From a virus (lineage: Duplodnaviria > Caudoviricetes): a stretch of 61,826 bases of DNA. Shown here in pieces: positions 1,014 to 32,106 of this stretch. The stretch spans positions 1 to 61,826 of the IMG/VR virus record IMGVR_UViG_3300021957_000032. One strand, written 5' to 3'. The translations under genes were made by a program, and so were the position numbers. Position 1 is the first letter of the stretch; every line of letters begins with the position of its first letter. Below the pieces are notes generated by a model, which saw only the letters and a list, made by a program, of their open reading frames with translations, did no database searches and was not told where the DNA came from.

Positions 1014-1424
1014 ATGAAATTCAATATTAGAAAATTAAATTCTTTAGACTACGATTCTATTTTAGTTAAATGGTGGAAAGATTGGAGATGGACAGCACCT
1101 CCAAAAGATTTTTTACCTGAGAATGGTGAAGGTGGGTTTATTGTATATGACAATGATATACCTGTATGTGCAGGATACATATACATGACTAACTCTAAGG
1201 TAGGTTGGTGTGATTGGATAATATCCAATTTTGAGTATAAAAACAAGAAGAAAAGAAAAGAAGCTTTAATTGAGCTTGTAAAAATATTAACGCATACTTT
1301 AAAACTGTCAGACTGTAAATACGCATATGCTTTAATAAAGTCTGATTCTTTAATAGAACATTATAAAGATAATGGATATATTGAAGGTGACAGTTATAAT
1401 AAAGAAATGATAAAACGATTATAA
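1014..1424 (+). CDS. GNAT-fold-like protein (position of T7 gp13-like genes)
   Basis: Likely start is ATG 1014 (MKFNIRKL), not 972; GNAT-like pattern IPVCAGYIY...WCDWIISN...LIEHYKDNGY; sits between tail and internal virion genes. Confidence 0.5.
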   Translation: MKFNIRKLNSLDYDSILVKWWKDWRWTAPPKDFLPENGEGGFIVYDNDIPVCAGYIYMTNSKVGWCDWIISNFEYKNKKKRKEALIELVKILTHTLKLSDCKYAYALIKSDSLIEHYKDNGYIEGDSYNKEMIKRL

Positions 1425-2448: not shown

Positions 2449-4572
2449 ATGGGTAACGCATTAGACGCAGCAAAGTTTTCGATAGAACAAGGTAATACAG
2501 GGGTAGGTACTAAAAAGACACTACTAGAAGGTATTGATAAAGGACTTAAAGATGTAAAAACCTGGAAAACAAACATCGACAAACAACGTCTTGAATTAAA
2601 AACAAACACAGCTAAACAATATAGAGATGCTGAGTTAAAGACAATGGAAAATCTTCCTAGTGATAAAACTAGTAGAGATTTAGCAATAAAAGCATTATCA
2701 GATTACAAAGACCGATTATATGGAAACATGGGGTTGGTTCAAGCAGGAGTGATAAAGCCTGAAGATAATTTAATATTTCAAGAAAACGGAAAACAATCTT
2801 TTGATATACTTGCGCAGCAAATAAATGGCTACGCTAAAGAAAAAGAAAACTATATAAAAAGACTTAAGGGATACTACGAATTAGATGAAAACGGAGATAA
2901 GAAAATTGGAACAGATGGAAATCCAATTTTTGTTCCCCCAAGTTCAGGTGGTGTAGACCAATCACTTCAAGATTTACACGATAGAATGGGTAATCCTGAT
3001 TTTACTGAAATGACATTTGGAGAAAATGGAATGGGTAAAATAACTTTTTTCAAAACAAAAATTGACGAAAGAACTAAAACTAGGGTTTTAGATTTAGATG
3101 CTGATGGAAAACCTCAGCCTTATAATGGTATTAAGGATATGAGCGTTTTAGCTTTTAATAACAAAAGAAATCAAACTGCAGAAAAGTTAGACTTAGCAAA
3201 AGAAACTGAAGCAGTTATTGGTAAAGATACTCCATTGGGTCAGATTTTTGAGAAAATGGATAATTTTGGTAAAATGCTTGGTGTTGTTACTGATGACATG
3301 AGAAATAACCCACAATTAAACATATTACTCAAAGATGCGGTAGCTACTGCTGCTGCAACTACTGACAGACAGGCTAGTATATTAAGTGACAATGGCCCTG
3401 AATCACAAAGATCACAAACAATAAATGAGTTTCAAGCTCAAGAGCTAAAAGATGCAGGAATAGATTTAGATGAAAAAATAGATTATACATATATTGATAC
3501 AGACCCAAAAAGTGATACTTACGGACAAGAGCTTCCAGGGAAAAAGAGTAAGTATATACAAATGGTTATGTCTAAGAACAATCAAATTGTTCCTGTAATA
3601 AGTCCTGAAGATAAGTTAGCTGCTGAGAGAATTGCTGGAACTAGTTTCTATTCAGGATTAAGAAGAGATATTACAGATAAAGGAACTAAAAGAAGTGAGT
3701 TCCAAGCTCGTGGAAATAATGCCGCAGACAATGCTAATAATGATGCTAAGAAACAAAAAGTAGGTCGAGTAGAATTTAGTAAAAGACTAGCTATGGGTGG
3801 TGAGGAAGCTGACAAAGCACTAGAAGAAATGAATCAAAGTGGGCTGTATACTCTTGAAAAAGGATATAATCAGATTTTAAGTAAATCAAAGGTTCAAGAG
3901 GTTGAAATAGATGGTGTAAAAAGAAAAGCAGAAGTATATAGAGTTCAAACTCCTAGTGGCCCTAAAGACACTTATGTTTATCACACACAAAAAGACGGAA
4001 CGCCTATACCTTTACAAGAAAGAACTAGACAGACTCTAGCAATAATGATGACAAACCCTACAGAAACAAAAGATTTGTTTGACACCTACATAGATGAAGG
4101 TAATAATTTTAATGAAACTTATAACGAATCTAATTTCAATCAAAAAGACAAGGTTAGTACTGTTAATGTTCGATTAAGCTTAGATACTACAACAGGTGGA
4201 ACAGGTGCGAGTAAATCAACCTTAGGAGATGAGATTGCTTTAGCTGCCGCTGCTGCTGATGACGCAAGTAGTTTTGGTTCAGATAATAAAGTTTTAGCTT
4301 CAGGTTTACAAAACTCTCTTCAGCAAGCTTTATTAAATAGTGGTCAAGCTATGGAATCTACCCCAAAAGTAACTGCTAGTGGTACTACAATTAAAATTAC
4401 AGCCATAAACTCTGATGGCAAAACTATTAGTGTTTCTGGTAACGTTGACGATGGGGCTGGTATAGATGCATCTACAATTGAAACCCAGGCAAAAGCTCTA
4501 ATTACAGAGTTTTTGTCTAATATAAATTCAGATAAAAACTACACAACAGGCAAGGGTAGGTTTGATAATTAA
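2449..4572 (+). CDS. Putative internal virion (ejection) protein
   Basis: 707-aa ORF; gene order typical of podovirus core proteins. Confidence 0.5.
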   Translation: MGNALDAAKFSIEQGNTGVGTKKTLLEGIDKGLKDVKTWKTNIDKQRLELKTNTAKQYRDAELKTMENLPSDKTSRDLAIKALSDYKDRLYGNMGLVQAGVIKPEDNLIFQENGKQSFDILAQQINGYAKEKENYIKRLKGYYELDENGDKKIGTDGNPIFVPPSSGGVDQSLQDLHDRMGNPDFTEMTFGENGMGKITFFKTKIDERTKTRVLDLDADGKPQPYNGIKDMSVLAFNNKRNQTAEKLDLAKETEAVIGKDTPLGQIFEKMDNFGKMLGVVTDDMRNNPQLNILLKDAVATAAATTDRQASILSDNGPESQRSQTINEFQAQELKDAGIDLDEKIDYTYIDTDPKSDTYGQELPGKKSKYIQMVMSKNNQIVPVISPEDKLAAERIAGTSFYSGLRRDITDKGTKRSEFQARGNNAADNANNDAKKQKVGRVEFSKRLAMGGEEADKALEEMNQSGLYTLEKGYNQILSKSKVQEVEIDGVKRKAEVYRVQTPSGPKDTYVYHTQKDGTPIPLQERTRQTLAIMMTNPTETKDLFDTYIDEGNNFNETYNESNFNQKDKVSTVNVRLSLDTTTGGTGASKSTLGDEIALAAAAADDASSFGSDNKVLASGLQNSLQQALLNSGQAMESTPKVTASGTTIKITAINSDGKTISVSGNVDDGAGIDASTIETQAKALITEFLSNINSDKNYTTGKGRFDN

Positions 4573-4583
4573 AAATAAAATAA

Positions 4584-7500
4584 ATGGAAGAATTATATAA
4601 CAAACTTTTTGAAGCTGGTGAATATACTAAGTCATTTGATGAATTTGTACAACAATATGGAGATGCTGAAAAGTCAGAAAAGCTTTTTAAAGGATTAAGT
4701 CAAACAGGAGACTACACAAAATCTTTTGAAGAATTTAAGTCTCAATATGGATTCGCTGAAAAAAAAAACTCAAATTCCACTTCAGAAGAGGTCGTTACGG
4801 AATCCACTACAAATGTGGAAACAAATCCTTCCTCTTTGGATTCTTCGTCAACAACAACAAGCGTTGATATACCTTTAGTAGAAGAGCCTTTAGTTGACTT
4901 TCCTAATGCACCAGAAAGAAAGGGTGTGTTAGAAAATGAAGATGGTTCTGTTTCAACACATAAAATGAGAACAGAAACTGATGGCAAAGGCAATTGGTTT
5001 TCTTTTCCTACAATATTTCAAAATGAAGACGGAAGTTTTGTTGACATGTCTGAACAAGCAGAGTCAGATTGGGAGAGTGTATACGCAGAAGCTAAAAATA
5101 GAGGAGAAGTTATTGATTTTTCAAAAGATAAAGAATCAGCTATTAAATACGGTAAAGGAGCTTGGAAGCAAAAATACAATGCCAATAAAAAAAATAACTT
5201 ACTTGAAGAATCAGGGTATTTAGCATATGTAAATGATCCTGAAAGAAAAAAGTTTATGTCAATACTTGACACTTCCTCAGAACCTAACCCAAATGTATCT
5301 GATTACCTTAAGAAAAAATATGAAAAACAATACGGATTTGTTAATCCTGAAACAGGTAAAACAGAGTTTAAAAAAGAATCTGAGGTAAATCCAAGTTTAT
5401 TAGAAGCTATCAAAGAATATGACTCAATGGTTGGAGACATAAAAGCTCCTAACTATGTTGACGTTGAGATTGATGATGACGATTATAGTAAACTAGGAAA
5501 TAATGTAAAAAATATTCTTAGAAAACAAGAGATAGATGTAGAAGATTATTTAAAGTGGCAAAAGAAAAACACACGAAATGAAACGAGTGTTTATAAGTGG
5601 ATGAAAAAACTTTTACCAAATGAGGAAGGTGATCAATATTATGAAGAGAAAAATGCTTATGAAAAAGTACAATCTTATAAAGCAGCTCAGCTAAATCAAA
5701 TAGCAAAGAGATTGGGGAAAATCCAATCTACTATGAATTTGACATCAGACAGAAATGAATTAAGAAAACTTGAGAAAGAAGCAGATGAAGTTAGAAAAGA
5801 GTTTTATAGTAAAGTACAATCAGTTACTGAAACTATAAATGACTTCCCTAAATTCAAAGAATATACTGAAGATGCTGACTTAAGAAGAAGAAAAGCAATG
5901 TATCTTGCTGCTCAAGAAGGTGGTCTATCTGAAGGAGGTCAAGGAATGGTTGAATTGCTTTCTGTAACAGGTAACGGTCTTTCAGGATTTGCTACCGATA
6001 TTTTGGCAGGAGTACCTGCTTTTTTTGACCAAAGAATTGCCACTATGGGTGGAGACAATAAGTTTGATGGTAAAGGTGTATTAAAAGGTCTTGAAGAAAT
6101 GCTTACAAACTCTGCTGAAAGCTTAGAGGCATCAACAGGAGCTGTACAAAGACAGGCGTTTATAGAAGGTAAGCCTGTTTTTCAAGGAGGAAAAAGATAT
6201 ATTGTTGATGGTAATGGAACTGTATACGACCAAAACACAAACATAAGAATGGATGGTATTATTCCAAATGATACCATTAAAAAGATTGTAAGCTTATCCA
6301 AAGATGTAAAAGAAACCGAAGTCAATTGGACAGGAGGATCTGTGCTTCAAGGTGGTGTAAGTACACTTGTAAATTTATTTGCATTAATTAGAGCAGGTGG
6401 TAAAGTAAAAGGTACACTTGGGTTAAAAGGGCCTAAAGCAGGTGCATTAGGTATGGGTATTGCCTCATTTACTTCTAGTGTTGCTGGTAATGTTGAAGAT
6501 GTACGTTCTCAATTAGTAGCTTCAGGAATGACTGAAAAAGAAGCTTTAGATATTGCAGTTAATGCAGGTCAAGCAATAGCCACTCTTGATGGTATTTTCT
6601 CAGGATTAGCAGGAGGAAACGAAAAACTTCTTATAGGTTTCCAAGGAATTAAAGACCAAATAAAAAACTTAGCAGTAAAAAAAGGTAAAGACTTTACAGT
6701 TAAACAACTTGTAGACAAGGGTAAAGGATTGGTAAAAGAGAATGCTAAAGAGCTTTTTATTGAAGAGCTTCCAGTTTATTTTTCAGAAAAAGGAATAAAT
6801 CACTTAGTAAATAGACATATAGGAAATGATGTTTTAAATGATAAAATAACAAAAGCAGGGATTACAGAAACAGTCGTTATGACAGTAGGAGCTACTTCAA
6901 CTTTAGGCGCTAAGAAATTATTGTCAGGAAATAAGAGAGCGAATTTAGTAAGATTAGCTGCAGCAAATGTACAAGATTTACAAGCCACACTAGACGTCTT
7001 AGTAAAGGAGGGTTCTTTAACTGAAATAGAAGCTTCAAATGCTTACACAGAAATATACAATGCACAATCAGCTGAGTTAAAAACTCAAGGTACTGTTAAG
7101 ATGACTGAAAACATTGAGCCTGCTGCTGATTTATTAACAGAGAGACAAAACTTAATAAATAAAAAACAAGGCTTAGAAGGCCCTGGGAAACTAGACATTG
7201 ATAAACAAATAGCAGCTGTTGACCAACAGCTAGATGCACTATATGAAAAAGATAAAATAGAAGTTCAAGAACAATTAAAAAAAGAAAACGATGCCATTCA
7301 AGAGCCAAGCACAGAGAAGCAAGTGTTACAGGATGATGCAGGAAGCGAAACTGTTGGGAAAGAAACCGAAGTGGGACTGCCTGAAGTGGGAAAAGGAGAC
7401 ATTGAGTCAGAAACTACCCAACAGACTGAAACCGAAAGTGAAACGAAAACAGACCAAAATGTCGACACGACTACGAAGACAGATTCTGAACAGTTAACCA

Positions 7501-10500
7501 ATACCACTTCTGAGACAGAAGTGATGAGTGTGAACAAGGAAAGAGTAGACTCTATTGTCGATGGTATTGTTAAGAAAACAAAAAGCCGAAATGTAGGAGA
7601 AAGCACTAACCCTCAAAAAGTTGCAGACAACGCAATTGAATATATAAAAGGTTCTAAATTATTTGAACAGTCAAATGATATAGAAAGAGAAAATATAATT
7701 AGAGATGTTAGCAAACAACTAGGTGTAGAAATAAAACCTCCTACTGCAAAAAAATTATTAGGCATTAAAAGAATAGGTAAGCCTAAGACTATTAAAGTAA
7801 AAAGTGACTACGCAGCAATGAAGAAGGATCTTCAAAAAGAAGCGAAGATTGCTAGAGATGCTAAGAACGATGTAAACAGCAGAAGAAAAGGGTTACAGAA
7901 TGCTATAGATTTAGTTGTAAAAGCAGGTAACATTACTACTAAAAAAGCCAACACATTGCTGAAAAAAGTTTCTAATGTAAATCTCTATAACGCCAAGAAA
8001 GTTCAAGACGTAGTAGATTTTACTACAAGAGCAATGAATGATGCAGAGTATTCTAAAAAGTTAGATAAGGCAAAGTCAATTCAGAAAGCTATTAAGAAAA
8101 AGCTAAAAGGTAAAGAAGCAGGTTTATCTGATTCTGCTAAAAAGTTTAGTGAAGTTAATCCGAGTAATGTAGCTGATATTGATGTGTATTTAGAAAAGGC
8201 TAATGAAGTAAGCAAGGGATTACAACCAACTAGAAAACCATCTAAGGGAGAACTTAAAGTAAGTAAGCCTTTTGATATAAAGAAAATGGATGAGTATTCT
8301 AAAAAGGAAAAAGAATTAGAAGCAAAAAGAAACTATGAGCTTGCAAAAGAATCTTTCCAAGAACTAACAGGTCTAGAGCCAGGAGATTTAACTCTTGACG
8401 AAATGAAAAAGATGATGTATGAGGTAGATGGAAACGTAAAAACTGATGAAGCTAAAGAAAAGTTTGAAAAAGAAAAAGCTGCTACAATTGATAAAGCTGT
8501 AAAAAATGCATTTAAGAATACTAAAATAAATATAAAGGGTGCTATAGAGTCAGGGGATATAAAAGTTACCAAAGAACAAAAGACTTTGATTGACAAATTC
8601 CTAAACATGAATTTAGATTTAATGACTACTAAGCAAAAAATGGAAGCATTAGATTCAATTGTAAACTTTGAACTAAACCAATCGACAGGTGGAATGCAAG
8701 CTGCATTGAGTCAACAAGTTGGTAATCTCAATATGCAAAAATTAAAAAACAAAGGGATAAAGTCTAGTGAAAAAAGCACAAGCTTAGGTAGACTTTGGAA
8801 CAAATATATTTCAACATTGCCCAATGCATTTGAACTTGTTTTTGCATCACAACAAAAAGCTAGAGCTGTAATGGATGCTATGGGTCTTGATGGGATTATA
8901 AATGGTTCTGCAAAAGCTCAAACCGAAGGAGTTAATGTAGAAAATGAATACGCAAATTCTTTTGGTAAAAAGAAAATGAAAAGTGGAATTTATTTTGATT
9001 TACAAAATGATACTGAAAGAGGAATATTAGCAGAGGTTAGAAGAGTTACACCTGGGACAGAAACTGAACAACAAGCTGAGTTTGAAAAGAGTAAAAAACT
9101 AGTCAAAGATAGTTACGAAGCTTTATTAAATTCATCAGACAAAATAAAAATAAAAAAAGGAGAGGCTATAAAAGAACAATACGAAAAACTTTTAAAAGAC
9201 TCAAAAAATATTGCAGAGGTTGAAAGCAAAGCAGATCCTGTGAATCTTCAGGGTGTAGAATATGTAACTGATTTATGGGCTAAAAAATACCCTGAGCTTG
9301 CAGACGTTTCTTTAAATGTATATAACAGAAACTTAGGTAGTGATTTAAACTATACACCTAGAAATTTTCAAAAGTTAAAGGATGCAGAGGATACTAGAGA
9401 TATAACTGAACCTGTATTTAATCCAAGTGGCAATAAAGAAAATGCTTACGACAAAGAAACAGGTGTTTTAAAACCCACAACAAAACCAAATAAACTTCCA
9501 AAAAATAAAGTATTGAATTTAAGTTTTGATTCTCAGAACATGAATAACTATAAAGCTGCTTTAACAGATATTTATACAGCATCTTCAATACAGCAAGTAA
9601 AAGGAGCTAGACAATCTAAAGCTTTTAATGAAGTATTTACAAATGAAGGGTCTAAAGAAATTCTAAAAGACAGGGTAAATAATTATGTTGATTCAAAAAG
9701 AGGCAAGAACTATTTAGATAAGAGTCAAAAAAGATTTTTAAGAAGGCTAAATAAAGTAGCTACACTAGGTGTGTCTAGAGTTTTAGGTGGGCCTACTCAA
9801 ATGCTTAAGCAAGTTATTCCTATATTTAATACAGGAGTTAATGCAGGTTTGGTAAACACATTAGAGGGAACAAGGCTAATGTTCAACCCTGATGTTAGAA
9901 AAGCAATAAATAATTCAGGCCTACCTATTGCAAATCGAGGTATACAGTCTCAAGCAGACATTGAAAATGTAGATAGTAGAATTGGTAAAAAAGCTAATAC
10001 TAATACAGGTAAAGCTATTGATGTTGCTGATAAGATAAATAAAAAGACATTAGAGTATTTCTTAGTTGCTCCTGATGTTGCAACTGCCAAGGCTTCTTTT
10101 ATTGCTTATTATTTAAACGCAATGAATAAGAAAGGTGTTAAAACGAGCGAGATAGATTTTACAAAACCTCTTGATAAAGAAGCTGCACAATTTGCACAGC
10201 AACAAGTAGATAGACAGCAAAACACTTCTGACCAAGATTTACAAGGAGAATTATTTACTGACCAAAATGCAGGTAAACAAATTTTAAGGAAAACATTATT
10301 TCCATTTGCAAACTTCTTGTTAAATCAAAAAACAAGAATGTATTCAGACGTTAACACTTTATCTAGTAAGACTACTCTTCCAGGAGATAAAACTAGAGCT
10401 ATTAAATCTTTAGGTGGGTTAGCTGCTGAAACAGTAACTTTTAACGCTGTTGGATTAGGAATAACTCAAATGCTTAGTGCTTTAGCTAGAGAGGTTTCAG

Positions 10501-11213
10501 GAGAAGATGAAGACGATCCTAACTTAAGTAGGGCTAAAAACGTTAAGAAAAAAAGAGAAGCTGAAGAAAAACAAATGATGAGCAGAATAACAGGAAGAAT
10601 TGGAAACATGATTGCAGATGTAGCAGTTCCTGTTCCTATTTTAAATGACGAAACTTTAAATCAGATAAATGGTCTTATGAGTCTTTTTCAAGAAGGCGAT
10701 GATAATCCATTTCAGTTTTTTGCTAAAACAGAGAAAAAAATACTTGACCAGGCAGGTACTTTAGGAATTGGGCCAAAGAAAGCTATGATTCTTAAAGATA
10801 TGATAATGACAATTCAATCAGGTGAATATACTGGGTCATACGCAGGAAAGTCTTATAGTAAAAAATTAACTCCTGAAGCTATTGACAAGTTAACAACTAT
10901 AGCTGTTACTTATGCTATGCATTCAGTAGGTGTGCCTTTTATGAATATGAGTGAGGTAGGTTATGTTTCCGAAAGAGCTTTCAAGAATATAACTAAAATG
11001 ACCGAAAAGAAGAAGAGGTATGACATTGAAGCTGATGCGATTGAAAGACTTAATGATAGGCAAATAAAAAACCCTAGCAGTATTTTGATAGAACAAGAAA
11101 TGAAGAAAATTAGAAAAGAAAACAGAGGAGATAACTCACCTACAAAACGTGATGATAAAACTTTTAATCCTAGTGGTAAAGGAAGTGGTTCATTTACTCC
11201 GAAATCTTTTTAG
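4584..11213 (+). CDS. Giant putative internal virion (ejection) protein
   Basis: 2209 aa, last late gene; N-terminal YTKSF(D/E)EF repeats; C-terminal AQQQVDRQQ...LFPFANF region typical of large core proteins. Confidence 0.6.
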   Translation: MEELYNKLFEAGEYTKSFDEFVQQYGDAEKSEKLFKGLSQTGDYTKSFEEFKSQYGFAEKKNSNSTSEEVVTESTTNVETNPSSLDSSSTTTSVDIPLVEEPLVDFPNAPERKGVLENEDGSVSTHKMRTETDGKGNWFSFPTIFQNEDGSFVDMSEQAESDWESVYAEAKNRGEVIDFSKDKESAIKYGKGAWKQKYNANKKNNLLEESGYLAYVNDPERKKFMSILDTSSEPNPNVSDYLKKKYEKQYGFVNPETGKTEFKKESEVNPSLLEAIKEYDSMVGDIKAPNYVDVEIDDDDYSKLGNNVKNILRKQEIDVEDYLKWQKKNTRNETSVYKWMKKLLPNEEGDQYYEEKNAYEKVQSYKAAQLNQIAKRLGKIQSTMNLTSDRNELRKLEKEADEVRKEFYSKVQSVTETINDFPKFKEYTEDADLRRRKAMYLAAQEGGLSEGGQGMVELLSVTGNGLSGFATDILAGVPAFFDQRIATMGGDNKFDGKGVLKGLEEMLTNSAESLEASTGAVQRQAFIEGKPVFQGGKRYIVDGNGTVYDQNTNIRMDGIIPNDTIKKIVSLSKDVKETEVNWTGGSVLQGGVSTLVNLFALIRAGGKVKGTLGLKGPKAGALGMGIASFTSSVAGNVEDVRSQLVASGMTEKEALDIAVNAGQAIATLDGIFSGLAGGNEKLLIGFQGIKDQIKNLAVKKGKDFTVKQLVDKGKGLVKENAKELFIEELPVYFSEKGINHLVNRHIGNDVLNDKITKAGITETVVMTVGATSTLGAKKLLSGNKRANLVRLAAANVQDLQATLDVLVKEGSLTEIEASNAYTEIYNAQSAELKTQGTVKMTENIEPAADLLTERQNLINKKQGLEGPGKLDIDKQIAAVDQQLDALYEKDKIEVQEQLKKENDAIQEPSTEKQVLQDDAGSETVGKETEVGLPEVGKGDIESETTQQTETESETKTDQNVDTTTKTDSEQLTNTTSETEVMSVNKERVDSIVDGIVKKTKSRNVGESTNPQKVADNAIEYIKGSKLFEQSNDIERENIIRDVSKQLGVEIKPPTAKKLLGIKRIGKPKTIKVKSDYAAMKKDLQKEAKIARDAKNDVNSRRKGLQNAIDLVVKAGNITTKKANTLLKKVSNVNLYNAKKVQDVVDFTTRAMNDAEYSKKLDKAKSIQKAIKKKLKGKEAGLSDSAKKFSEVNPSNVADIDVYLEKANEVSKGLQPTRKPSKGELKVSKPFDIKKMDEYSKKEKELEAKRNYELAKESFQELTGLEPGDLTLDEMKKMMYEVDGNVKTDEAKEKFEKEKAATIDKAVKNAFKNTKINIKGAIESGDIKVTKEQKTLIDKFLNMNLDLMTTKQKMEALDSIVNFELNQSTGGMQAALSQQVGNLNMQKLKNKGIKSSEKSTSLGRLWNKYISTLPNAFELVFASQQKARAVMDAMGLDGIINGSAKAQTEGVNVENEYANSFGKKKMKSGIYFDLQNDTERGILAEVRRVTPGTETEQQAEFEKSKKLVKDSYEALLNSSDKIKIKKGEAIKEQYEKLLKDSKNIAEVESKADPVNLQGVEYVTDLWAKKYPELADVSLNVYNRNLGSDLNYTPRNFQKLKDAEDTRDITEPVFNPSGNKENAYDKETGVLKPTTKPNKLPKNKVLNLSFDSQNMNNYKAALTDIYTASSIQQVKGARQSKAFNEVFTNEGSKEILKDRVNNYVDSKRGKNYLDKSQKRFLRRLNKVATLGVSRVLGGPTQMLKQVIPIFNTGVNAGLVNTLEGTRLMFNPDVRKAINNSGLPIANRGIQSQADIENVDSRIGKKANTNTGKAIDVADKINKKTLEYFLVAPDVATAKASFIAYYLNAMNKKGVKTSEIDFTKPLDKEAAQFAQQQVDRQQNTSDQDLQGELFTDQNAGKQILRKTLFPFANFLLNQKTRMYSDVNTLSSKTTLPGDKTRAIKSLGGLAAETVTFNAVGLGITQMLSALAREVSGEDEDDPNLSRAKNVKKKREAEEKQMMSRITGRIGNMIADVAVPVPILNDETLNQINGLMSLFQEGDDNPFQFFAKTEKKILDQAGTLGIGPKKAMILKDMIMTIQSGEYTGSYAGKSYSKKLTPEAIDKLTTIAVTYAMHSVGVPFMNMSEVGYVSERAFKNITKMTEKKKRYDIEADAIERLNDRQIKNPSSILIEQEMKKIRKENRGDNSPTKRDDKTFNPSGKGSGSFTPKSF
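7291..7497 (+). CDS. Small basic protein (MPFKSQAQR-type) nested in the +1 frame of the giant gene
   Basis: 68-aa ORF MPFKSQAQRSKCY...KWEKET...KLPNRLK; A-rich upstream sequence; locally raised GC. Confidence 0.65.
   Translation: MPFKSQAQRSKCYRMMQEAKLLGKKPKWDCLKWEKETLSQKLPNRLKPKVKRKQTKMSTRLRRQILNS
7523..7536 (+). repeat. 14-bp motif GATGAGTGTGAACA, copy 1 of 5
   Basis: Exact match to the copies at 15702 (inverted), 19235, 24262 and 27515. Confidence 0.9.
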
Positions 11214-27397: not shown

Positions 27398-27613
27398 TTA
27401 GTTATACATTCCAAACGCCACATTGTTATCAAGTCCGTTTGCTATTAGATTATAAATTAATGTTACAAATCCTACTACAAATAGTATTGATAAACCCATA
27501 AGAAAAACTCTTAAGATGAGTGTGAACACCGTTCCCCTGAACGTTGTTACAACTTGTCCTTGTCTGTCTCTTACTTGTGTAGTCTCTGCTAATTCTCTGA
27601 TGATTGTTCCCAT
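27398..27613 (-). CDS. Small membrane protein
   Basis: 71 aa with a long hydrophobic helix. Confidence 0.65.
   Translation of the reverse strand: MGTIIRELAETTQVRDRQGQVVTTFRGTVFTLILRVFLMGLSILFVVGFVTLIYNLIANGLDNNVAFGMYN
27515..27528 (+). repeat. 14-bp motif GATGAGTGTGAACA, copy 5
   Basis: Exact match; TTAA upstream is shared with copy 4. Confidence 0.9.
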
Positions 27614-27625
27614 AATTATTAATTG

Positions 27626-27817
27626 TTATTTGTTATTATTCTTTTCTTTTAAATCCATTATTGTTAGTGGCACGTATAATGCCAAGCACCCCACGAAAAA
27701 CATTAAGGCTGCGACAGATCTGTCCCCCTCTATTAAACTTTGATGTGCTGCTCTCCACGCATTCACGCAAACAAATATTGTGAATAGTGTAATGATTACT
27801 CTTTGTACTTTTTTCAT
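27626..27817 (-). CDS. Small two-helix membrane protein
   Basis: Likely start ATG 27817 (MKKVQRVII); two hydrophobic segments. Confidence 0.6.
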   Translation of the reverse strand: MKKVQRVIITLFTIFVCVNAWRAAHQSLIEGDRSVAALMFFVGCLALYVPLTIMDLKEKNNNK

Positions 27818-27821
27818 TTGA

Positions 27822-28034
27822 TTAGATTTTTTGTAGCTCTCTTGCGATTGCTCGTTCGACTCTTCTAAATTTGTAAATTCTTGTTGCCTCTGTCCAGGAA
27901 CACTGGACTTCGTGCATAATGTCTTTGACAACCTCTCCAAAGTTTTTATTAAATTGAATTTGTTTGTCTCTTTCTTCTTTTGCCACTTGTTCGATTACTA
28001 CAGTAACCGAGTTGGTTTTGATACGTTTTCTCAT
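27822..28034 (-). CDS. Basic hypothetical early protein
   Basis: 70 aa; first ORF after the long non-coding RNA region. Confidence 0.65.
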   Translation of the reverse strand: MRKRIKTNSVTVVIEQVAKEERDKQIQFNKNFGEVVKDIMHEVQCSWTEATRIYKFRRVERAIARELQKI

Positions 28035-28057
28035 TTGTAAATTATTAATTGATTAGA

Positions 28058-28102
28058 TGGCATGGAGGGATTCGAACCCTCAGCAGTCCTAACTACATGC
28101 CA
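28058..28102 (-). ncRNA. tRNA-like mini-element (acceptor stem plus T arm, no anticodon arm)
   Basis: TGGCATG-TAGTTAGGACTGCT-GAGGG-TTCGAAT-CCCTC-CATGCCA: 7-bp acceptor stem, 5-bp T stem, canonical T loop. Confidence 0.75.
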
Positions 28103-28595
28103 AACATATTACCTTGATACATTCCTGTCTTCCCAATATTGTATCTCTGTAATATCGTTTCTCTTTCGGTTTACAACACAGACTCTCCACTTGCTAGGTG
28201 TGTCTGTCTGTCCGTTCTAGTAATAACGAGAGGCAATTTTACGGCTCTCTACTATATCGAAATAATATAGTTCACTCTATGCTTTATAGGTAGTCTTGAT
28301 ACTTTACCCTTACATAGCCTCTACCTCATACAATTTGGTAGGTTATCAGTTATCTAAATACTTTAAGCCATAGGCGTTGCCATACGTGTACAAGGTGTTT
28401 TTGATAGTCTAGGCGTTGCCATAGATTACCCCTTGAGGTGCTTTGTATTACGTTGTAATTTTTTACGTGCCTGAATACTTGTTTTGAGTTTCATCTTGAG
28501 TTTAGTAAGGGCATAGATTACCCTTGTGTCGTATAGGTGCCGACTCTCTTTATCTACTAACTAACAATAGAATTGTTTCAAGTATCCAATATGTC
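28103..28595 (-). ncRNA. Candidate large structured ncRNA (~490 nt)
   Basis: No ORF of 60 aa or more; more than 12 helices found by eye; 5' GACATATTG pairs with 3' TAATATGTT. Confidence 0.6.
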
Positions 28596-28602
28596 AAAGA
28601 AC
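28587..28602 (-). promoter_or_regulatory. boxA-like antitermination element
   Basis: GTTCTTTGACATATTG resembles rRNA-operon boxA (E. coli TGCTCTTTAACA). Confidence 0.55.
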
Positions 28603-28626
28603 GAGATTAAAAAAACTTTTACGCTT

Positions 28627-28689
28627 GTACGCTTTGCGATACAAAAACATTTTTAAAATCCTACCTTTAAAACGTACGCTTTGCGATAC
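28627..28689 (-). repeat. Two copies of the bulged hairpin GTA-T-CGC-AAA-GCG-TAC
   Basis: Identical 16-mers at 28627-28642 and 28674-28689; related copies at 28371-28384 and 28410-28423. Confidence 0.85.
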
Positions 28690-28792
28690 GCTAAAGAGGT
28701 GCAATTTTATAGACTTTTTTTGTCTTTAGAACCCCCTCAAAATATGAGTTTTGCAACGCCCTAAAGACGTTTAAAGGGGGTTTTGGTGGTAA

Positions 28793-29281
28793 CTATGCTT
28801 TGACTAATTTAGCCGAAATAATAGCATTTAAAGAGGTCTCAAAATCCAAACCTTTTTCGATTTGTAGCTTTGTTATGCCTTGAATAAGTTGTTCAAATCT
28901 ATATACGTTAAAATTCCCTTTAATTAGTGTTACGGCTTCAGATAACAAAGGAATAAATTTAGCCTTGTTTTTTTCAGAGGTTAAAAAATTAATAGCTTTT
29001 TTGCACTCGTTTTGGTACGCAATATTTTTGTGCGATTTCGTGCTAACATTGTCAAGTTTTGCCGTTCTTTTTACCTCTAACAAGCAAAGCATCGCATCGG
29101 TTTTATATGCGTTCTTTTCGGTTTTTCTTCTAGCACTTTGCACGTTCGCAAATTGTGGGTTTAATGCACGTTTTTTAGCGATTGCCTCTTTTTGTGCGTT
29201 TGTCATTGGTTTACGTGTTACGACTTTTTTAGCCGTTGCGATTGTGTTAACTACTGAATTACTTTTAATTGAATTCTTCAT
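28793..29281 (-). CDS. First early gene: basic Lys/Ala-rich protein, candidate nucleic-acid binder
   Basis: 162 aa directly after the consensus promoter; N-terminal basic helix RKPMTNAQKEAIAKKRALN...SARRKTEK. Confidence 0.7.
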   Translation of the reverse strand: MKNSIKSNSVVNTIATAKKVVTRKPMTNAQKEAIAKKRALNPQFANVQSARRKTEKNAYKTDAMLCLLEVKRTAKLDNVSTKSHKNIAYQNECKKAINFLTSEKNKAKFIPLLSEAVTLIKGNFNVYRFEQLIQGITKLQIEKGLDFETSLNAIISAKLVKA

Positions 29282-29320
29282 AATAATAAAAATTTAAGTT
29301 GTTTGGCTTCATTGCCGTTA

Positions 29321-29352
29321 CAAATCTAAGGCTTTTTTATTTATTAGACAAA
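29321..29352 (-). promoter_or_regulatory. Consensus Bacteroidota housekeeping promoter (early)
   Basis: TTTG-20nt-TAGATTTG, followed by a small 5' hairpin GGC-AATGAA-GCC (29305-29316). Confidence 0.8.
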
Positions 29353-29640
29353 ATAAAAACAAAAATAAAACAAAATAAATTCTTGATCTTTTTAACTGAG
29401 CTTTTAAAATGAATAGTTAAATTGTTGATTATCAGCGTCTTAAGTCGTCAAAGTAATGCTGGAAATCGCAAAATAAAAATTCAAAATAATTTAAAAATAA
29501 ATTTATTCAATAGGTTTTTATTGTGTTTTGGTGTGTTTTTTTTGGTGGGTTTAGTATTAAAAAAGTTAAGCATTTTAAAAAATTAGGGCATTGTTAACCC
29601 TTTCTTTAGTATTGTGTAAAACAAAAACAAAGGGGGCAAA

Positions 29641-29729
29641 GGGTTTGTTTTGTGTGTGTGTGTGGGTGCGTGGCATGGCGTGGGGGCGTGGGGCGTGGGT
29701 GGTGGTGGTGGTGTGGGGGTGTGGGGTGT
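29641..29729 (+). repeat. G/T-rich low-complexity tract
   Basis: (TG)n, GGGGCGT and (GGT)n runs; a single A in 89 nt. Confidence 0.9.
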
Positions 29730-29872
29730 AGCAAAAAGCTAAAAAGATGCAACAATAAAAACGGCTTTTAAAAGTACCCCCCCTATCAAAAAAAAGATCG
29801 CCTTCCGATGAGGGATGATCGCTGTATTTTATATTATTACCCAGAGCCTCTTTATAAGTGATATTAATTTTG

Positions 29873-29880
29873 TATATTTG
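29873..29880 (+). promoter_or_regulatory. -7 promoter box at the start of the plus-strand block
   Basis: TATATTTG 3 nt before ATG 29884. Confidence 0.6.
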
Positions 29881-29883
29881 TAA

Positions 29884-30030
29884 ATGGAAGCATGGGAAAT
29901 AGAAATACAAAACAGGATCCCTGTTGGGATTGCAATTGGCTGGAGTCTTTATAATAAAGATGAAAGTTATGATTTTGGTGAATTAATAATTTACCTAGGA
30001 ATAATAAGTTTACATTTTAAATGGCAATGA
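29884..30030 (+). CDS. Small hypothetical protein (48 aa, below the ORF-track cutoff)
   Basis: MEAWEIEIQNRIPVGIAIGW...LHFKWQ. Confidence 0.6.
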   Translation: MEAWEIEIQNRIPVGIAIGWSLYNKDESYDFGELIIYLGIISLHFKWQ

Positions 30031-30031
30031 T

Positions 30032-30238
30032 ATGATTAGTAAAAAACCGATAATGAAAGAGTATATGTCTTCACGTAACAAACATGAGCTAGATGGTCAT
30101 GGACAGTATTACGAAATGGGGATTAAAAAATTAGCTAGCTTTAAAAAAGCTAAAGATCGTGCTAAGGATATTAGTATGATAGCTGAAGGAATTGAATTAG
30201 CAGAAGCTAAAAAGAATTTCTTTAGTATATATAAATAA
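30032..30238 (+). CDS. Hypothetical protein
   Basis: 68-aa ORF. Confidence 0.6.
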   Translation: MISKKPIMKEYMSSRNKHELDGHGQYYEMGIKKLASFKKAKDRAKDISMIAEGIELAEAKKNFFSIYK

Positions 30239-30272
30239 TTTCTTCCCACAATTTATATTGTGTTTCTCAGAG

Positions 30273-30304
30273 AAAGGGGTTTAACTTCGGTTAGCCCCTT
30301 TTTT
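30273..30304 (+). terminator. Intrinsic terminator
   Basis: AAGGGGTTTAAC-TTCG-GTTAGCCCCTT followed by a T tract. Confidence 0.8.
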
Positions 30305-30489
30305 GTGTCGTTTTATGTCGGCCTATGTCGATTTTGTGTCGATTATTTTTCTTGTAACTAACTGATTTCTAACTATTAACTATCTTTTATGTCGATTATG
30401 TCGGTTTTTATTCTAATTATATAGATAATAAAAAATATAAATAGTATAATTACTATATATATATATATAGAAACATAAAATCGACATTC
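30304..30489. other. Putative replication origin: TRTGTCG iterons plus an AT-rich unwinding region
   Basis: Six TRTGTCG copies (four at 10-11 bp spacing), an AT-rich core with a (TA)n palindrome at 30453-30470, and an inverted CGACAT at 30482. Confidence 0.55.
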
Positions 30490-30509
30490 GTCATGAACTT
30501 TAATTTTTG

Positions 30510-30517
30510 TATATTTG
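30510..30517 (+). promoter_or_regulatory. -7 promoter box for groEL
   Basis: TATATTTG upstream of ATG 30541. Confidence 0.6.
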
Positions 30518-30540
30518 CATTAATCTAATAAAATGAAAAT

Positions 30541-32106
30541 ATGAATCCAAAAGAATTATCCTTCGATCAAGAGGGGAGAGACAAATTATTAAACGGAATC
30601 ACTACAATTTCCAGAGCAGTTAAAAGTACATTAGGGCCACTCGGCAAAACAGTATTAATAGAATCACCAAACCACAGAGGAGGAATTACAATTACAAAAG
30701 ACGGTGTGACTGTAGCTAAATCAATTGACTTAGAAGACTCGGTAGAGAATCTAGCAATTACTATGATGAAGGAGGCTGCAGACCGAACAGCAACCTCAGC
30801 AGGAGACGGAACTACTACTGCGATTGTTTTAACTGAGGCTATTGTAAAGGAAGGAATGCGTTTGATTCAGAGAAACCCTGAGATAAATACCACACAATTA
30901 ATTAGAGACATCAAGTCTCATTCAGAGGAGGTAATAAAATCTTTAAGCAGTTCATCAAAAAAAGTAACTGGAAAAACATTACGTGATGTTGCTACAATAT
31001 CTGCGAACAACGATTCTGTTTTAGGAAAGATGATTGCTAGTGCGTACAAAGAGTTGGGTAAAGACGGAATACTTACAGTAGAAAATAGTAAGACTGAAAA
31101 AACATACTACGAGGTAACTAAAGGAATTAAGATTGACAGAGGATATTCTTCAAAGCTATTTATCAATAATCACAGAAACGATGAATGTATACTAGATGAT
31201 GTATATGTTTTGATGACGGACATGGAGATTACCAATATACTTCAGATTGAAAATATATTAAAGCCAATAATAAACCAAAACAAAAAACTTCTAGTGATTG
31301 GGAACTGTTCTCAAAATGTAACAAACACATTAGCAGCGAATGTAGTTCAGAATAATTTAAAGCTCTGTAATATTATACCACCATCGTTTGGTTACAAAAC
31401 AAATGAACTGATGAGTGATATTGCTTTGGCAATAGGTGCAAAATATTTTAGCGAGTCGCAGGGCGACAACATTGGGATGTTGACAATGGAAGATTTAGGA
31501 CATGCTGATAAAATTATTGTAGGAAAAGATGGAACTGTAATTATGAATGACGAAGTTCAAGATGCTAAGTCTAGAATTTCTGAGTTGAAAGTTCAGAAAG
31601 AAAACAATAAGGACAAGAAAGAAAGAGATTTCATTACCGAACGTATTGCATTGTTGTCAGGAGCTGTAGGCGTAATTTATGTTGGGGCTGATTCTGATAT
31701 TGAGCAGAAAGAAAAGTATGATCGTGTAGAAGATGCAGTATGTGCAGTAAAATCAGCGATTGAAGAAGGAATTCTTCCAGGAGGAGGGGTAGCTCTTTTG
31801 AGATGTGCAGAAAAACTAGGAGACGGAGACTCAAATGACGTTATGTACGGAGCTTTGATTTCACCACTAGAGCAGATACTTACAAATGCAGGTGAAAACA
31901 TAAAAGAAATTAGAGATAAAATTTGTAGTTGTGCAGATGCTCCACATAATTTTGGATATGACGTAAAAAATAAAGTTTTTGGCGACATGTACAAGATGGG
32001 AGTTATAGATCCTGCAAAAGTTACAAAGAATGCGTTGAAAAATGCAGTAAGTGTAGCGACAACAATATTAAGCACCAATGCAATTGTAACAATGAAAAGA
32101 AAATAA
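30541..32106 (+). CDS. groEL: Chaperonin GroEL (phage-encoded)
   Basis: TLGPLG, ITKDGVTVAK, GDGTTTA, GILPGGG, GVIDPAKV. Confidence 0.97.
   Translation: MNPKELSFDQEGRDKLLNGITTISRAVKSTLGPLGKTVLIESPNHRGGITITKDGVTVAKSIDLEDSVENLAITMMKEAADRTATSAGDGTTTAIVLTEAIVKEGMRLIQRNPEINTTQLIRDIKSHSEEVIKSLSSSSKKVTGKTLRDVATISANNDSVLGKMIASAYKELGKDGILTVENSKTEKTYYEVTKGIKIDRGYSSKLFINNHRNDECILDDVYVLMTDMEITNILQIENILKPIINQNKKLLVIGNCSQNVTNTLAANVVQNNLKLCNIIPPSFGYKTNELMSDIALAIGAKYFSESQGDNIGMLTMEDLGHADKIIVGKDGTVIMNDEVQDAKSRISELKVQKENNKDKKERDFITERIALLSGAVGVIYVGADSDIEQKEKYDRVEDAVCAVKSAIEEGILPGGGVALLRCAEKLGDGDSNDVMYGALISPLEQILTNAGENIKEIRDKICSCADAPHNFGYDVKNKVFGDMYKMGVIDPAKVTKNALKNAVSVATTILSTNAIVTMKRK

Follow-up and report, generated by a model that had tools for sequence, protein, structure and literature searches.

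To our knowledge, few classes of bacterial or phage non-coding RNA (ncRNA) longer than ~400 nt are known. GOLLD, ROOL and OLE have unusual architectures, and their functions are still open. RNase P makes the ncRNA 3' end of MALAT1 and MEN-beta by cleavage at a tRNA-like element, and the P4 CI RNA and the P1-P7 C4 antisense RNAs are cut by the same enzyme from an operon leader via tRNA-like features. GOLLD and ROOL are borne by phages or prophages, often near tRNA islands, and GOLLD sometimes holds a tRNA in its linker, as given in the accessible part of bioRxiv 10.1101/2024.12.08.627333. The subject of the present analysis is a stretch of 61,826 bases (the window), which is the whole of virus record IMGVR_UViG_3300021957_000032 (CheckV completeness 100), and in which a preliminary description had proposed a large structured ncRNA next to a tRNA-like element, on the minus strand. 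We conclude that this RNA is an apparently undescribed class of large, modular phage ncRNA, kin in kind to GOLLD and ROOL and a member of neither. Its core (28103-28595) is ~490 nt long; with its leader, the RNA probably measures ~600 nt. The order of its parts is leader hairpins, domain D1, variable domain D2, domain D3, a closing helix (in this phage and some relatives), and a tRNA-like minihelix (Table 1). We consider it very likely that this is a real family of structured ncRNA.

The ORF-free slot and its relatives

The longest stretch of the genome without an open reading frame (ORF) of at least 60 aa, with both strands considered, is the 758-nt interval 28035-28792, which agrees with the preliminary description. 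On the sense strand it holds just two ORFs, one of 36 aa that starts with TTG and one of 33 aa that starts with GTG. The RNA lies directly behind the first gene (p162) of a leftward operon of small and replication/recombination genes, ahead of all the others, and is transcribed in the same direction as its neighbours. It had been assigned to the earliest transcript; second place in the operon stands, while "earliest" is not borne out by operon position alone.

Relatives were collected as 19 IMG/VR loci via GroEL and as a further 10 IMG/VR and 74 metagenome loci via p70 alignment; individual loci and contigs carry L numbers. In the seven loci where both flanking genes are present, the same place is an ORF-free gap of 598-1007 nt. 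For 50 metagenome loci, 1300 nt or more is available upstream of p70; in 49 of them the gap to the next same-strand ORF of 80 aa is at least 457 nt, and the median is 781 nt. Sense ORFs in the last 650 nt are short in 45 distinct relatives: the longest per sequence reaches 68 aa at most (median 41 aa), its position is inconstant, and no conserved ORF remnant was found. Gene p70 is the next ORF of at least 80 aa downstream in all fetched loci, an association with the RNA that is partly by construction, because the loci were fetched through p70. Relative to the window, the family is a mosaic: loci variously share the 5' domain only, the 3' domain only, or the minihelix only.

No known family accounts for the RNA. 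None of the 4227 Rfam 15 families matches the window at gathering score, and none matches 20 related loci; the novelty claimed for the RNA stands this check. The Rfam 15 models of large bacterial RNAs (RNase P RNA, 6S, OLE, HEARO, raiA, IMES, and Y-RNA-like) give no match. When the threshold was relaxed to E <= 10 on 27700-29000, only chance-level rows were returned beyond a near-threshold tRNA row; ST7-OT3, snoR16, DUF2693 RNA, Hovlinc, and others (E 0.22-5.5, 16-23 bits) were rejected on these grounds. No description of such an RNA was found among the titles and abstract openings that literature searches listed.

The RNA was likewise absent from the cultured phage records searched: a blastn search of 901 nt against 50,697 phage records and a tblastn search of p70 against cultured phage records produced no match, and no such gap is seen in the two GroEL relatives inspected, MW202828 and Flavobacterium phage elemoB. 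The D1 pattern has no match in bacterial genomes, and therefore the RNA is not cellular, as far as the exact D1 pattern can tell. A pattern scan of IMG/VR returned nine stretches, namely three contigs already in the set, one new real locus (L029), and five chance matches inside a protein gene (L022, L024, L026, L027, and L030), which were discarded.

In L005 (3150-3640, minus strand), small ORFs occupy the RNA position. In other relatives, an RNA that cannot be aligned with the present one, here called type B, occupies the same slot (L008:3653-4193, L009:554-974, and L012:4158-4332, all on the minus strand, and ca. 15 metagenome loci). Type B RNAs share the 5' motif (TTGACATTTTGA) with the present RNA and have a core, GACGAACAAAC, that is invariant, a junction with AAACCAC, and a terminal minihelix. 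Their P1-like helix covaries by eye, their MAFFT consensus fold is weak (8 of 15 pairs compensated), and model R1, described below, does not detect them.

Domain structure and transcript

Domain D1 was analysed in two ways. An ordinary MAFFT alignment of 13 sequences, made without any model, predicted hairpins P2-P4 with 8 of 17 pairs compensated; no cell is broken in P3, nor in the outer four pairs of P2. The long-range helix P1 was added by hand, and the resulting model, R1, gave 28 matches at E <= 5e-6 in 75 sources. In this alignment, 95.3% of the D1 cells are paired, compared to 35-56% with partners slid, 20 of 26 pairs are changed on both sides (131 such cells versus 42 in shuffles), and none of 500 shuffles reaches any of the five measures used, although these statistics favour structure because the alignment was fitted to R1. 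Up to six pair types occur at one position of P1. G-U pairs are frequent: one P2 pair is UG in 22 rows, and P1 and P4 contain GU or UG; since the other strand would give C-A at these places, the transcript strand is the minus strand.

Domain D3 is highly uniform, with a mean column identity of 78% in a MAFFT alignment of 16 sequences. Of the cells in its 49-pair consensus fold, 98% are paired (26-47% with partners slid), and 7 of the 49 pairs are compensatory. In L103 and L113 one arm of the three-way junction is deleted and the closing helix of the junction is kept. Domain D2, which lies between D1 and D3, is swapped for other sequence in many relatives. A recurring middle-domain hairpin with the core AGGACGAGTTCC and covarying stems (acgag/cttgt versus acgat/gttgt) was observed in several subtypes in L016, L064, L067, L073, L077, L078, and L112. 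In a full-length fold of five sequences, 29 of 116 pairs are compensatory.

The RNA contains four related bulged hairpins, two in the leader and two in the middle domain. In the family motif, the two strands of a variable stem enclose a bulged U or A, then GG, 3-7 nt, and CC; 88 copies were counted in 73 distinct sequences, compared to 9.3 +/- 2.8 in dinucleotide shuffles. The inner sequence and loop follow one subtype within each RNA and differ between RNAs, and we infer that the hairpins are several putative binding sites for one ligand. The leader 16-mer has exactly two copies genome-wide (0.10 expected). In relatives, leader hairpin 1 appears in a compensated version (outer stem ATGTA/TACAT, inner stem GGC/GCC), and hairpin 2 of L004 is the compensated GGC/GCC version. 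The longer hairpin that precedes them, directly after the p162 stop, is kept in L004 and L007 with changed lengths of the G/C runs, and may act like a terminator or belong to the RNA leader.

The closing helix, GACATATTG/TAATATGTT in this phage, occurs in three compensated forms, the others being ACATTTTG/TAAAATGT (CAAAATGT in L047) and ACATATCG/TGGTATGT, and a compensated version is found even in the otherwise unalignable type B RNAs. Its last base is 28103 and the minihelix begins at 28102, which places the tRNA-like element directly 3' of the ncRNA.

All helices listed in the preliminary description, as well as its repeat (GGGTAATCTATG, with minus-strand starts at 28523 and 28431), are present on the minus strand. 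Compensatory changes in relatives back GGATACTTG/CAAGTATTC, GTCG/CGAC, AAGGGTA/TGCCCTT, CTACC/GGTAG, CTATG/CATAG, ACAGAC/GTCTGT, and GAGAG/CTCTC, while ACTATAT/ATATAGT and TGTAA/TTACA hardly vary. The pairing GATACA/TGTATC exists, with compensation seen only by eye and in 2 of 16 rows. The pairing AACAAT/ATTGTT had to be given up: it is not conserved, and covariation supports instead a TCTA/TAGA stem around the invariant loop TTGTTAGTTAG. The closing helix was partly upheld, by its three compensated variants, and is mismatched or absent in other relatives.

Parts of 27400-29400 are held in 24 public runs, nine of them recorded as RNA; four are compared here. Contigs of X1 (= X2), X3, and X4, from three studies, cover 28113-28714 at 95-100% identity, an interval that spans the core and both leader hairpins. 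Because these contigs reach 28714, the RNA probably starts upstream of 28595; the core proposed earlier is retained, and its 5' boundary probably moves to ~28714, which adds two hairpins. The contigs stop at 28124 (X1), 28166 (X3), and 28113 (X4), short of the minihelix. These stops were not counted toward a discrete species or toward cleavage, because they border stretches that the contigs leave uncovered and do not coincide at one position, and because no DNA run was compared. The lack of X1-X3 contigs on p70 or p162 was likewise not counted as evidence.

The claim of a large structured ncRNA of no known family thus holds on the conserved slot, covariation in two domains, the strand signal from G-U pairs, the lack of a match in Rfam 15, and the RNA-library contigs.

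Table 1. Positions of the RNA parts and other features in the window
Feature	Positions	Strand	Description
Long hairpin	28732-28784	-	directly after p162 stop; CCCCC...GGGGG closing pairs
Leader hairpin 1	28674-28689	-	bulged-U hairpin GTA-T-CGC-AAA-GCG-TAC; within X3 and X4 contigs
Leader hairpin 2	28627-28642	-	second copy of the same motif; within X1, X3, and X4 contigs
Closing helix, 5' strand	28588-28595	-	inside conserved motif TTGACATATTG; pairs with 28103-28111
D1	28473-28587	-	P1 (28579-28587/28473-28481) encloses P2, P3, and P4
P2	28568-28571/28553-28556	-	variable stem (TCTA/TAGA here), invariant loop TTGTTAGTTAG
P3	28541-28544/28528-28531	-	loop GCACCT..
P4	28519-28524/28508-28513	-	D1 hairpin
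D2	28360-28472	-	variable domain; bulged hairpins 28408-28425 and 28369-28386, core TGGCAACGCC (hairpin scan)
D3	28112-28359	-	hairpins and three-way junction; highly conserved sequence
Closing helix, 3' strand	28103-28111	-	nine bases ending at the base before the minihelix
tRNA-like minihelix	28058-28102	-	acceptor 28096-28102/28058-28064; 14-nt insert; T stem 28077-28081/28065-28069; T loop 28070-28076
p162	28793-29281	-	upstream gene, first of the leftward operon; basic, all-helical
p70	27822-28034	-	downstream gene; small basic protein, predicted two-helix hairpin
GroEL-type chaperonin gene	30541-32106	+	PHROG 5725, E 5e-129
Region between two divergent operons	29282-30540		large, mostly non-coding
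2209-aa ORF	4584-11213	+	no Pfam, PHROG, or PDB sequence match

The tRNA-like minihelix and the surrounding genome

The tRNA-like element noticed earlier is real. Its stems of 7 bp and 5 bp (12 bp in all) carry the loop TTCGAAT (UUCGANU in general), and the hallmarks of an acceptor/T-arm minihelix, which are 7 + 5 bp, a 7-nt TTCRANT loop, and G-C closing, are all found at 28058-28102. The Rfam tRNA model (RF00005) aligns 28057-28102 with 28.5 bits (gathering score 29; E 0.0017). Since the model does so by deleting the D and anticodon arms, the element consists of the acceptor stem and T arm only. ARAGORN called no tRNA or transfer-messenger RNA (tmRNA) gene in the window or in 20 related loci. 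A true tRNA was rejected on the strength of the sub-threshold Rfam score, the lack of an ARAGORN call, and the missing D and anticodon arms.

A strict scan, for a 5-bp stem closed by G-C with a TTCGANT loop and a further 6-7 bp, found the T-loop minihelix in 49 of 74 metagenome loci, at most 700 nt upstream of p70. When filtered for 5/5 T-stem pairs and at least 6/7 acceptor pairs, 24 distinct minihelix sequences remained, 23 of which lie in the same slot; the 24th (L020) is elsewhere. The acceptor stems have at least five different sequences; stems vary from subtype to subtype with their complementarity kept, and a single change (C-G to U-A, A-U to G-C) on one strand has its counterpart on the other. 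The two stems of the minihelix are spaced by 0-1 nt in most subtypes, by 14 nt here, and by 32 nt in L004. An exact search of bacterial genomes with the 24-nt 3' half of the minihelix gave one match, itself on a phage-related contig (L116) of a metagenome-assembled genome (MAG), and an attP remnant is disfavoured because the 24-nt half occurs in no other bacterial genome scanned.

The longer insert of L004, a close relative (3595-3657, minus strand), holds a palindromic partial duplication of the T-stem region. The element of L020, a more distant relative (1124-1167, minus strand; GroEL 58%), has a 7-bp acceptor, a 13-nt insert, and a T arm, and lies between two small genes, the one behind it unrelated to p70. 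L007, L008, and L011 have one or two extra small ORFs between minihelix and p70, one of which is very hydrophobic (~35 aa).

Neither flanking protein matched a Pfam or PHROG family. For p162, 130 metagenomic homologues were found, none with a Pfam domain. Its AlphaFold2 (AF2) model has seven helices (predicted local distance difference test, pLDDT, 73.7) and no Foldseek match in the PDB at E <= 0.001; sigma-factor chains, listed at E 1.5-3 with a probability below 0.1, were discounted, and the ESM Atlas provided no usable match. The AF2 model of p70 is a bare two-helix hairpin (pLDDT 75.6).

The Bacteroidetes-type -7 box is TAnnTTTG. On the minus strand there is none at 28600-28800 and there are two upstream of p162. 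The box is not enriched genome-wide (110 versus 94 expected; 6 of 100 shuffles reach 110), and a sigma-70-type promoter scan gave results at shuffle level. The motif TTGACATATTG was tried as a repeated promoter and abandoned (36 matches with at most two mismatches, 38.9 expected).

The larger plus-strand ORFs include the terminase, portal, virion proteins, and tail-fibre-like proteins, and the leftward block on the minus strand includes a primase/helicase, a helicase, exonucleases, a Sak-like annealing protein, and a methyltransferase. A scan of the 29 larger ORFs found neither an RNA polymerase nor an integrase. By GroEL, the nearest GenBank phages are less than 60% identical; they are an uncultured Caudoviricetes genome, followed by Flavobacterium "elemo" podophages and Cellulophaga phages. 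L116, a 62,605-base contig roughly as long as a phage genome and binned in a Flavobacteriaceae MAG, is related to this phage and carries the 3' domain and minihelix at 91% identity; its binning may be a weak hint of the host or an artefact. The RNA class belongs to marine podovirus-like phages, probably those of Flavobacteriaceae.

A co-chaperonin gene lies behind GroEL in MW202828 and the elemo phages. The region between the divergent operons contains repeats of the CGACA(T/C) type (ca. eight), together with a (TA)n run and a low-complexity tract rich in C and A (~29650-29730), and looks like an origin or control region. The 2209-aa ORF may encode an injected or virion protein.

Function, alternatives, and relation to known systems

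The explanation that we prefer is that of a new ncRNA class that is cut at the minihelix and acts in trans as a scaffold or decoy; for this explanation as a whole the balance is about even. The RNA would be co-transcribed with p162 as part of the leftward, probably early, operon transcript, to which the only candidate -7 boxes on the minus strand, upstream of p162, weakly point. The minihelix would then serve as a punctuation signal for a host tRNA-processing enzyme: RNase P would cut at its 5' edge, with RNase Z possibly acting behind it, and the cut would free a stable RNA, its ends held by the closing helix, from the downstream mRNA. Processing at the minihelix, argued by analogy with mascRNA and the P4 CI and C4 RNAs, is plausible, if held with slightly more doubt than belief. 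The freed RNA may work in trans and, through its four bulged GG...CC hairpins, hold multiple copies of a single protein of phage or host origin; a trans-acting, protein-binding RNA is a tentative assignment, about which we are more doubtful. Mosaicism, domain swapping, and patchy presence suggest an accessory function in host takeover or conflict and not a core one. A more specific proposal is that of a phage ribonucleoprotein RNA, in which host RNase P makes the 3' end at the minihelix, the hairpins capture a host or phage protein, and the exchange of domains and hairpin subtypes among near-identical phages reflects an arms race (e.g. anti-defence or competitor exclusion); the released minihelix might then also function separately as a small tRNA-like RNA. 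We regard this proposal as speculative and rather unlikely.

Several observations weigh against the preferred explanation. Folding energy alone is marginal, with a z-score of -1.96 for the minimum free energy of the minus strand (3 of 100 shuffles fold as well) and of -1.34 for the plus strand. D3 shows little variation, and its count of further pair types, one of the five measures, does not rise above shuffles but falls below them, so that support for D3 is moderate. The closing helix is mismatched in five close relatives (L041, L044, L055, L057, and L059) and lacks an adjacent partner in L004, L007, L011, L048, L049, and others with different 3' modules. The RNA-library contigs give no ends, strand, or level, and an RNA library may hold DNA. 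A partner protein for the hairpins was not identified, p162 and p70 being without informative family or fold. Finally, L005, with a GroEL 90% identical to that of this phage, lacks the RNA, the minihelix, and p70, and the RNA module is therefore accessory or dispensable.

The loss of RNA and p70 together in L005 also speaks for the first alternative, a cis-acting leader. Here, the hairpins and domains would be read on the nascent transcript and regulate p70 and the replication genes behind it, through either read-through or translation, in the manner of nut/boxB or put sites, with p162 or p70 as the cognate factor and the accumulating RNA as a by-product. The place inside the operon, directly behind its first gene and before all others, would suit such a leader, as would the distribution of TAnnTTTG, the basic character of p162, and hairpin loops that are subtype-specific like those of nut sites. 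In the comparison with lambdoid nut/boxB, hairpins and basic neighbours are present, and no N-protein homology turned up, none having been specifically sought. However, TAnnTTTG is not enriched, an RNA of at least 500 nt with several domains, a long-range helix, a three-way junction, and a closing helix exceeds the known needs of antitermination sites, and the tRNA-like element is given no place. We therefore consider a cis-acting leader unlikely.

A second alternative takes the 12-bp hairpin for a terminator or 3'-end stabiliser derived from a tRNA T arm, with the RNA as a terminated structured 3' untranslated region or leader and the tRNA likeness without a role. It draws on three points that also count against the preferred explanation: 22 of the 74 loci keep an 11-bp stem with a non-T loop (AGGGAT or AGTGAT), which makes the T-loop signature common, not obligatory; an encoded CCA was found behind none of the minihelices; and in L020 a similar element stands by itself between two genes, in a gap of ~100 nt that holds no large RNA. 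However, a simple scan lists no terminator-like site at the minihelix, no T run follows it, and 49 of the 74 loci keep the G-C pair, the TTCGANT loop, and the 7 + 5-bp geometry across at least five stem types, which is hard to explain without selection for tRNA likeness. This alternative is, in our view, improbable, and more so than a cis-acting leader.

Phage attachment sites often contain tRNA 3' halves, and the repeat-rich, iteron-like region 29282-30540 is only ~0.7 kb away, yet a DNA-level element (replication origin, packaging site, or attP with a host tRNA 3' half) or a decayed gene is very improbable, given G-U pairs and compensatory changes that fit a single-stranded minus-strand RNA, a 24-nt half found in no scanned bacterial genome except the 62.6-kb phage-related contig, an acceptor 5' strand that attP does not need, the lack of an integrase among the ORFs scanned, and the lack of a conserved ORF remnant.

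Returning to the processed, trans-acting RNA, its family offers dozens of diverged natural variants, clear domain boundaries, and presence in ocean RNA libraries; the tRNA-like end suggests a processing step, and the repeated hairpin a protein partner. Its restriction to uncultured marine phages marks a gap in knowledge of how Flavobacteriaceae-like hosts are taken over. Were the processing model true, phages would use tRNA mimicry to punctuate transcripts, beyond supplying tRNAs.

Among known systems, GOLLD (RF01998) and ROOL (RF03087) share with this RNA large size (>500 nt), multiple domains, and carriage by phages, and they are often neighbours of tRNAs; in this RNA, conserved 5' and 3' domains flank a variable middle. 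The comparison drawn in the preliminary description holds as an analogy only: neither model matches the window (at gathering score or at E <= 10) or any of 20 related loci. The partner here is a truncated tRNA look-alike, fused to the 3' end, in place of a real tRNA, and the carriers are marine Bacteroidota-type phages. A further mark of GOLLD and ROOL is an RNA-only multimeric cage.

A survey of IMG/VR intergenic regions by Fremin et al. 2023 (PMC10690425) yielded 10,006 models, with tRNA-like candidates and many unnamed motifs that, in the accessible part of that paper, are at most 151 nt long (mean 67). These candidates come from the same data source and, by the lengths given there, are far shorter than this RNA; single hairpins or D1 may be among the 10,006 models.

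Like tmRNA, this RNA combines a large structured body with an acceptor/T-arm tRNA-like part. In tmRNA, the acceptor joins the 5' and 3' ends with the body inside, whereas here the minihelix is a local 3' hairpin; tmRNA was rejected on account of this local acceptor stem, the lack of an ARAGORN or Rfam call, and the lack of a conserved tag frame as judged by eye. The P4 CI and C4 RNAs are only ~77-80 nt long, and neither family has an Rfam row here. With MALAT1, MEN-beta, and mascRNA, the likeness is that of a long ncRNA followed immediately by a tRNA-like element. The mascRNA-menRNA model (RF01684) aligns with the same 45 nt weakly (17.6 bits versus a gathering score of 42.5), and there is no homology; mascRNA is eukaryotic, the phage element is entirely without D and anticodon arms, and cleavage is here only proposed. 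If the proposal is true, this RNA would be the first counterpart of MALAT1/mascRNA processing in a bacterial virus.

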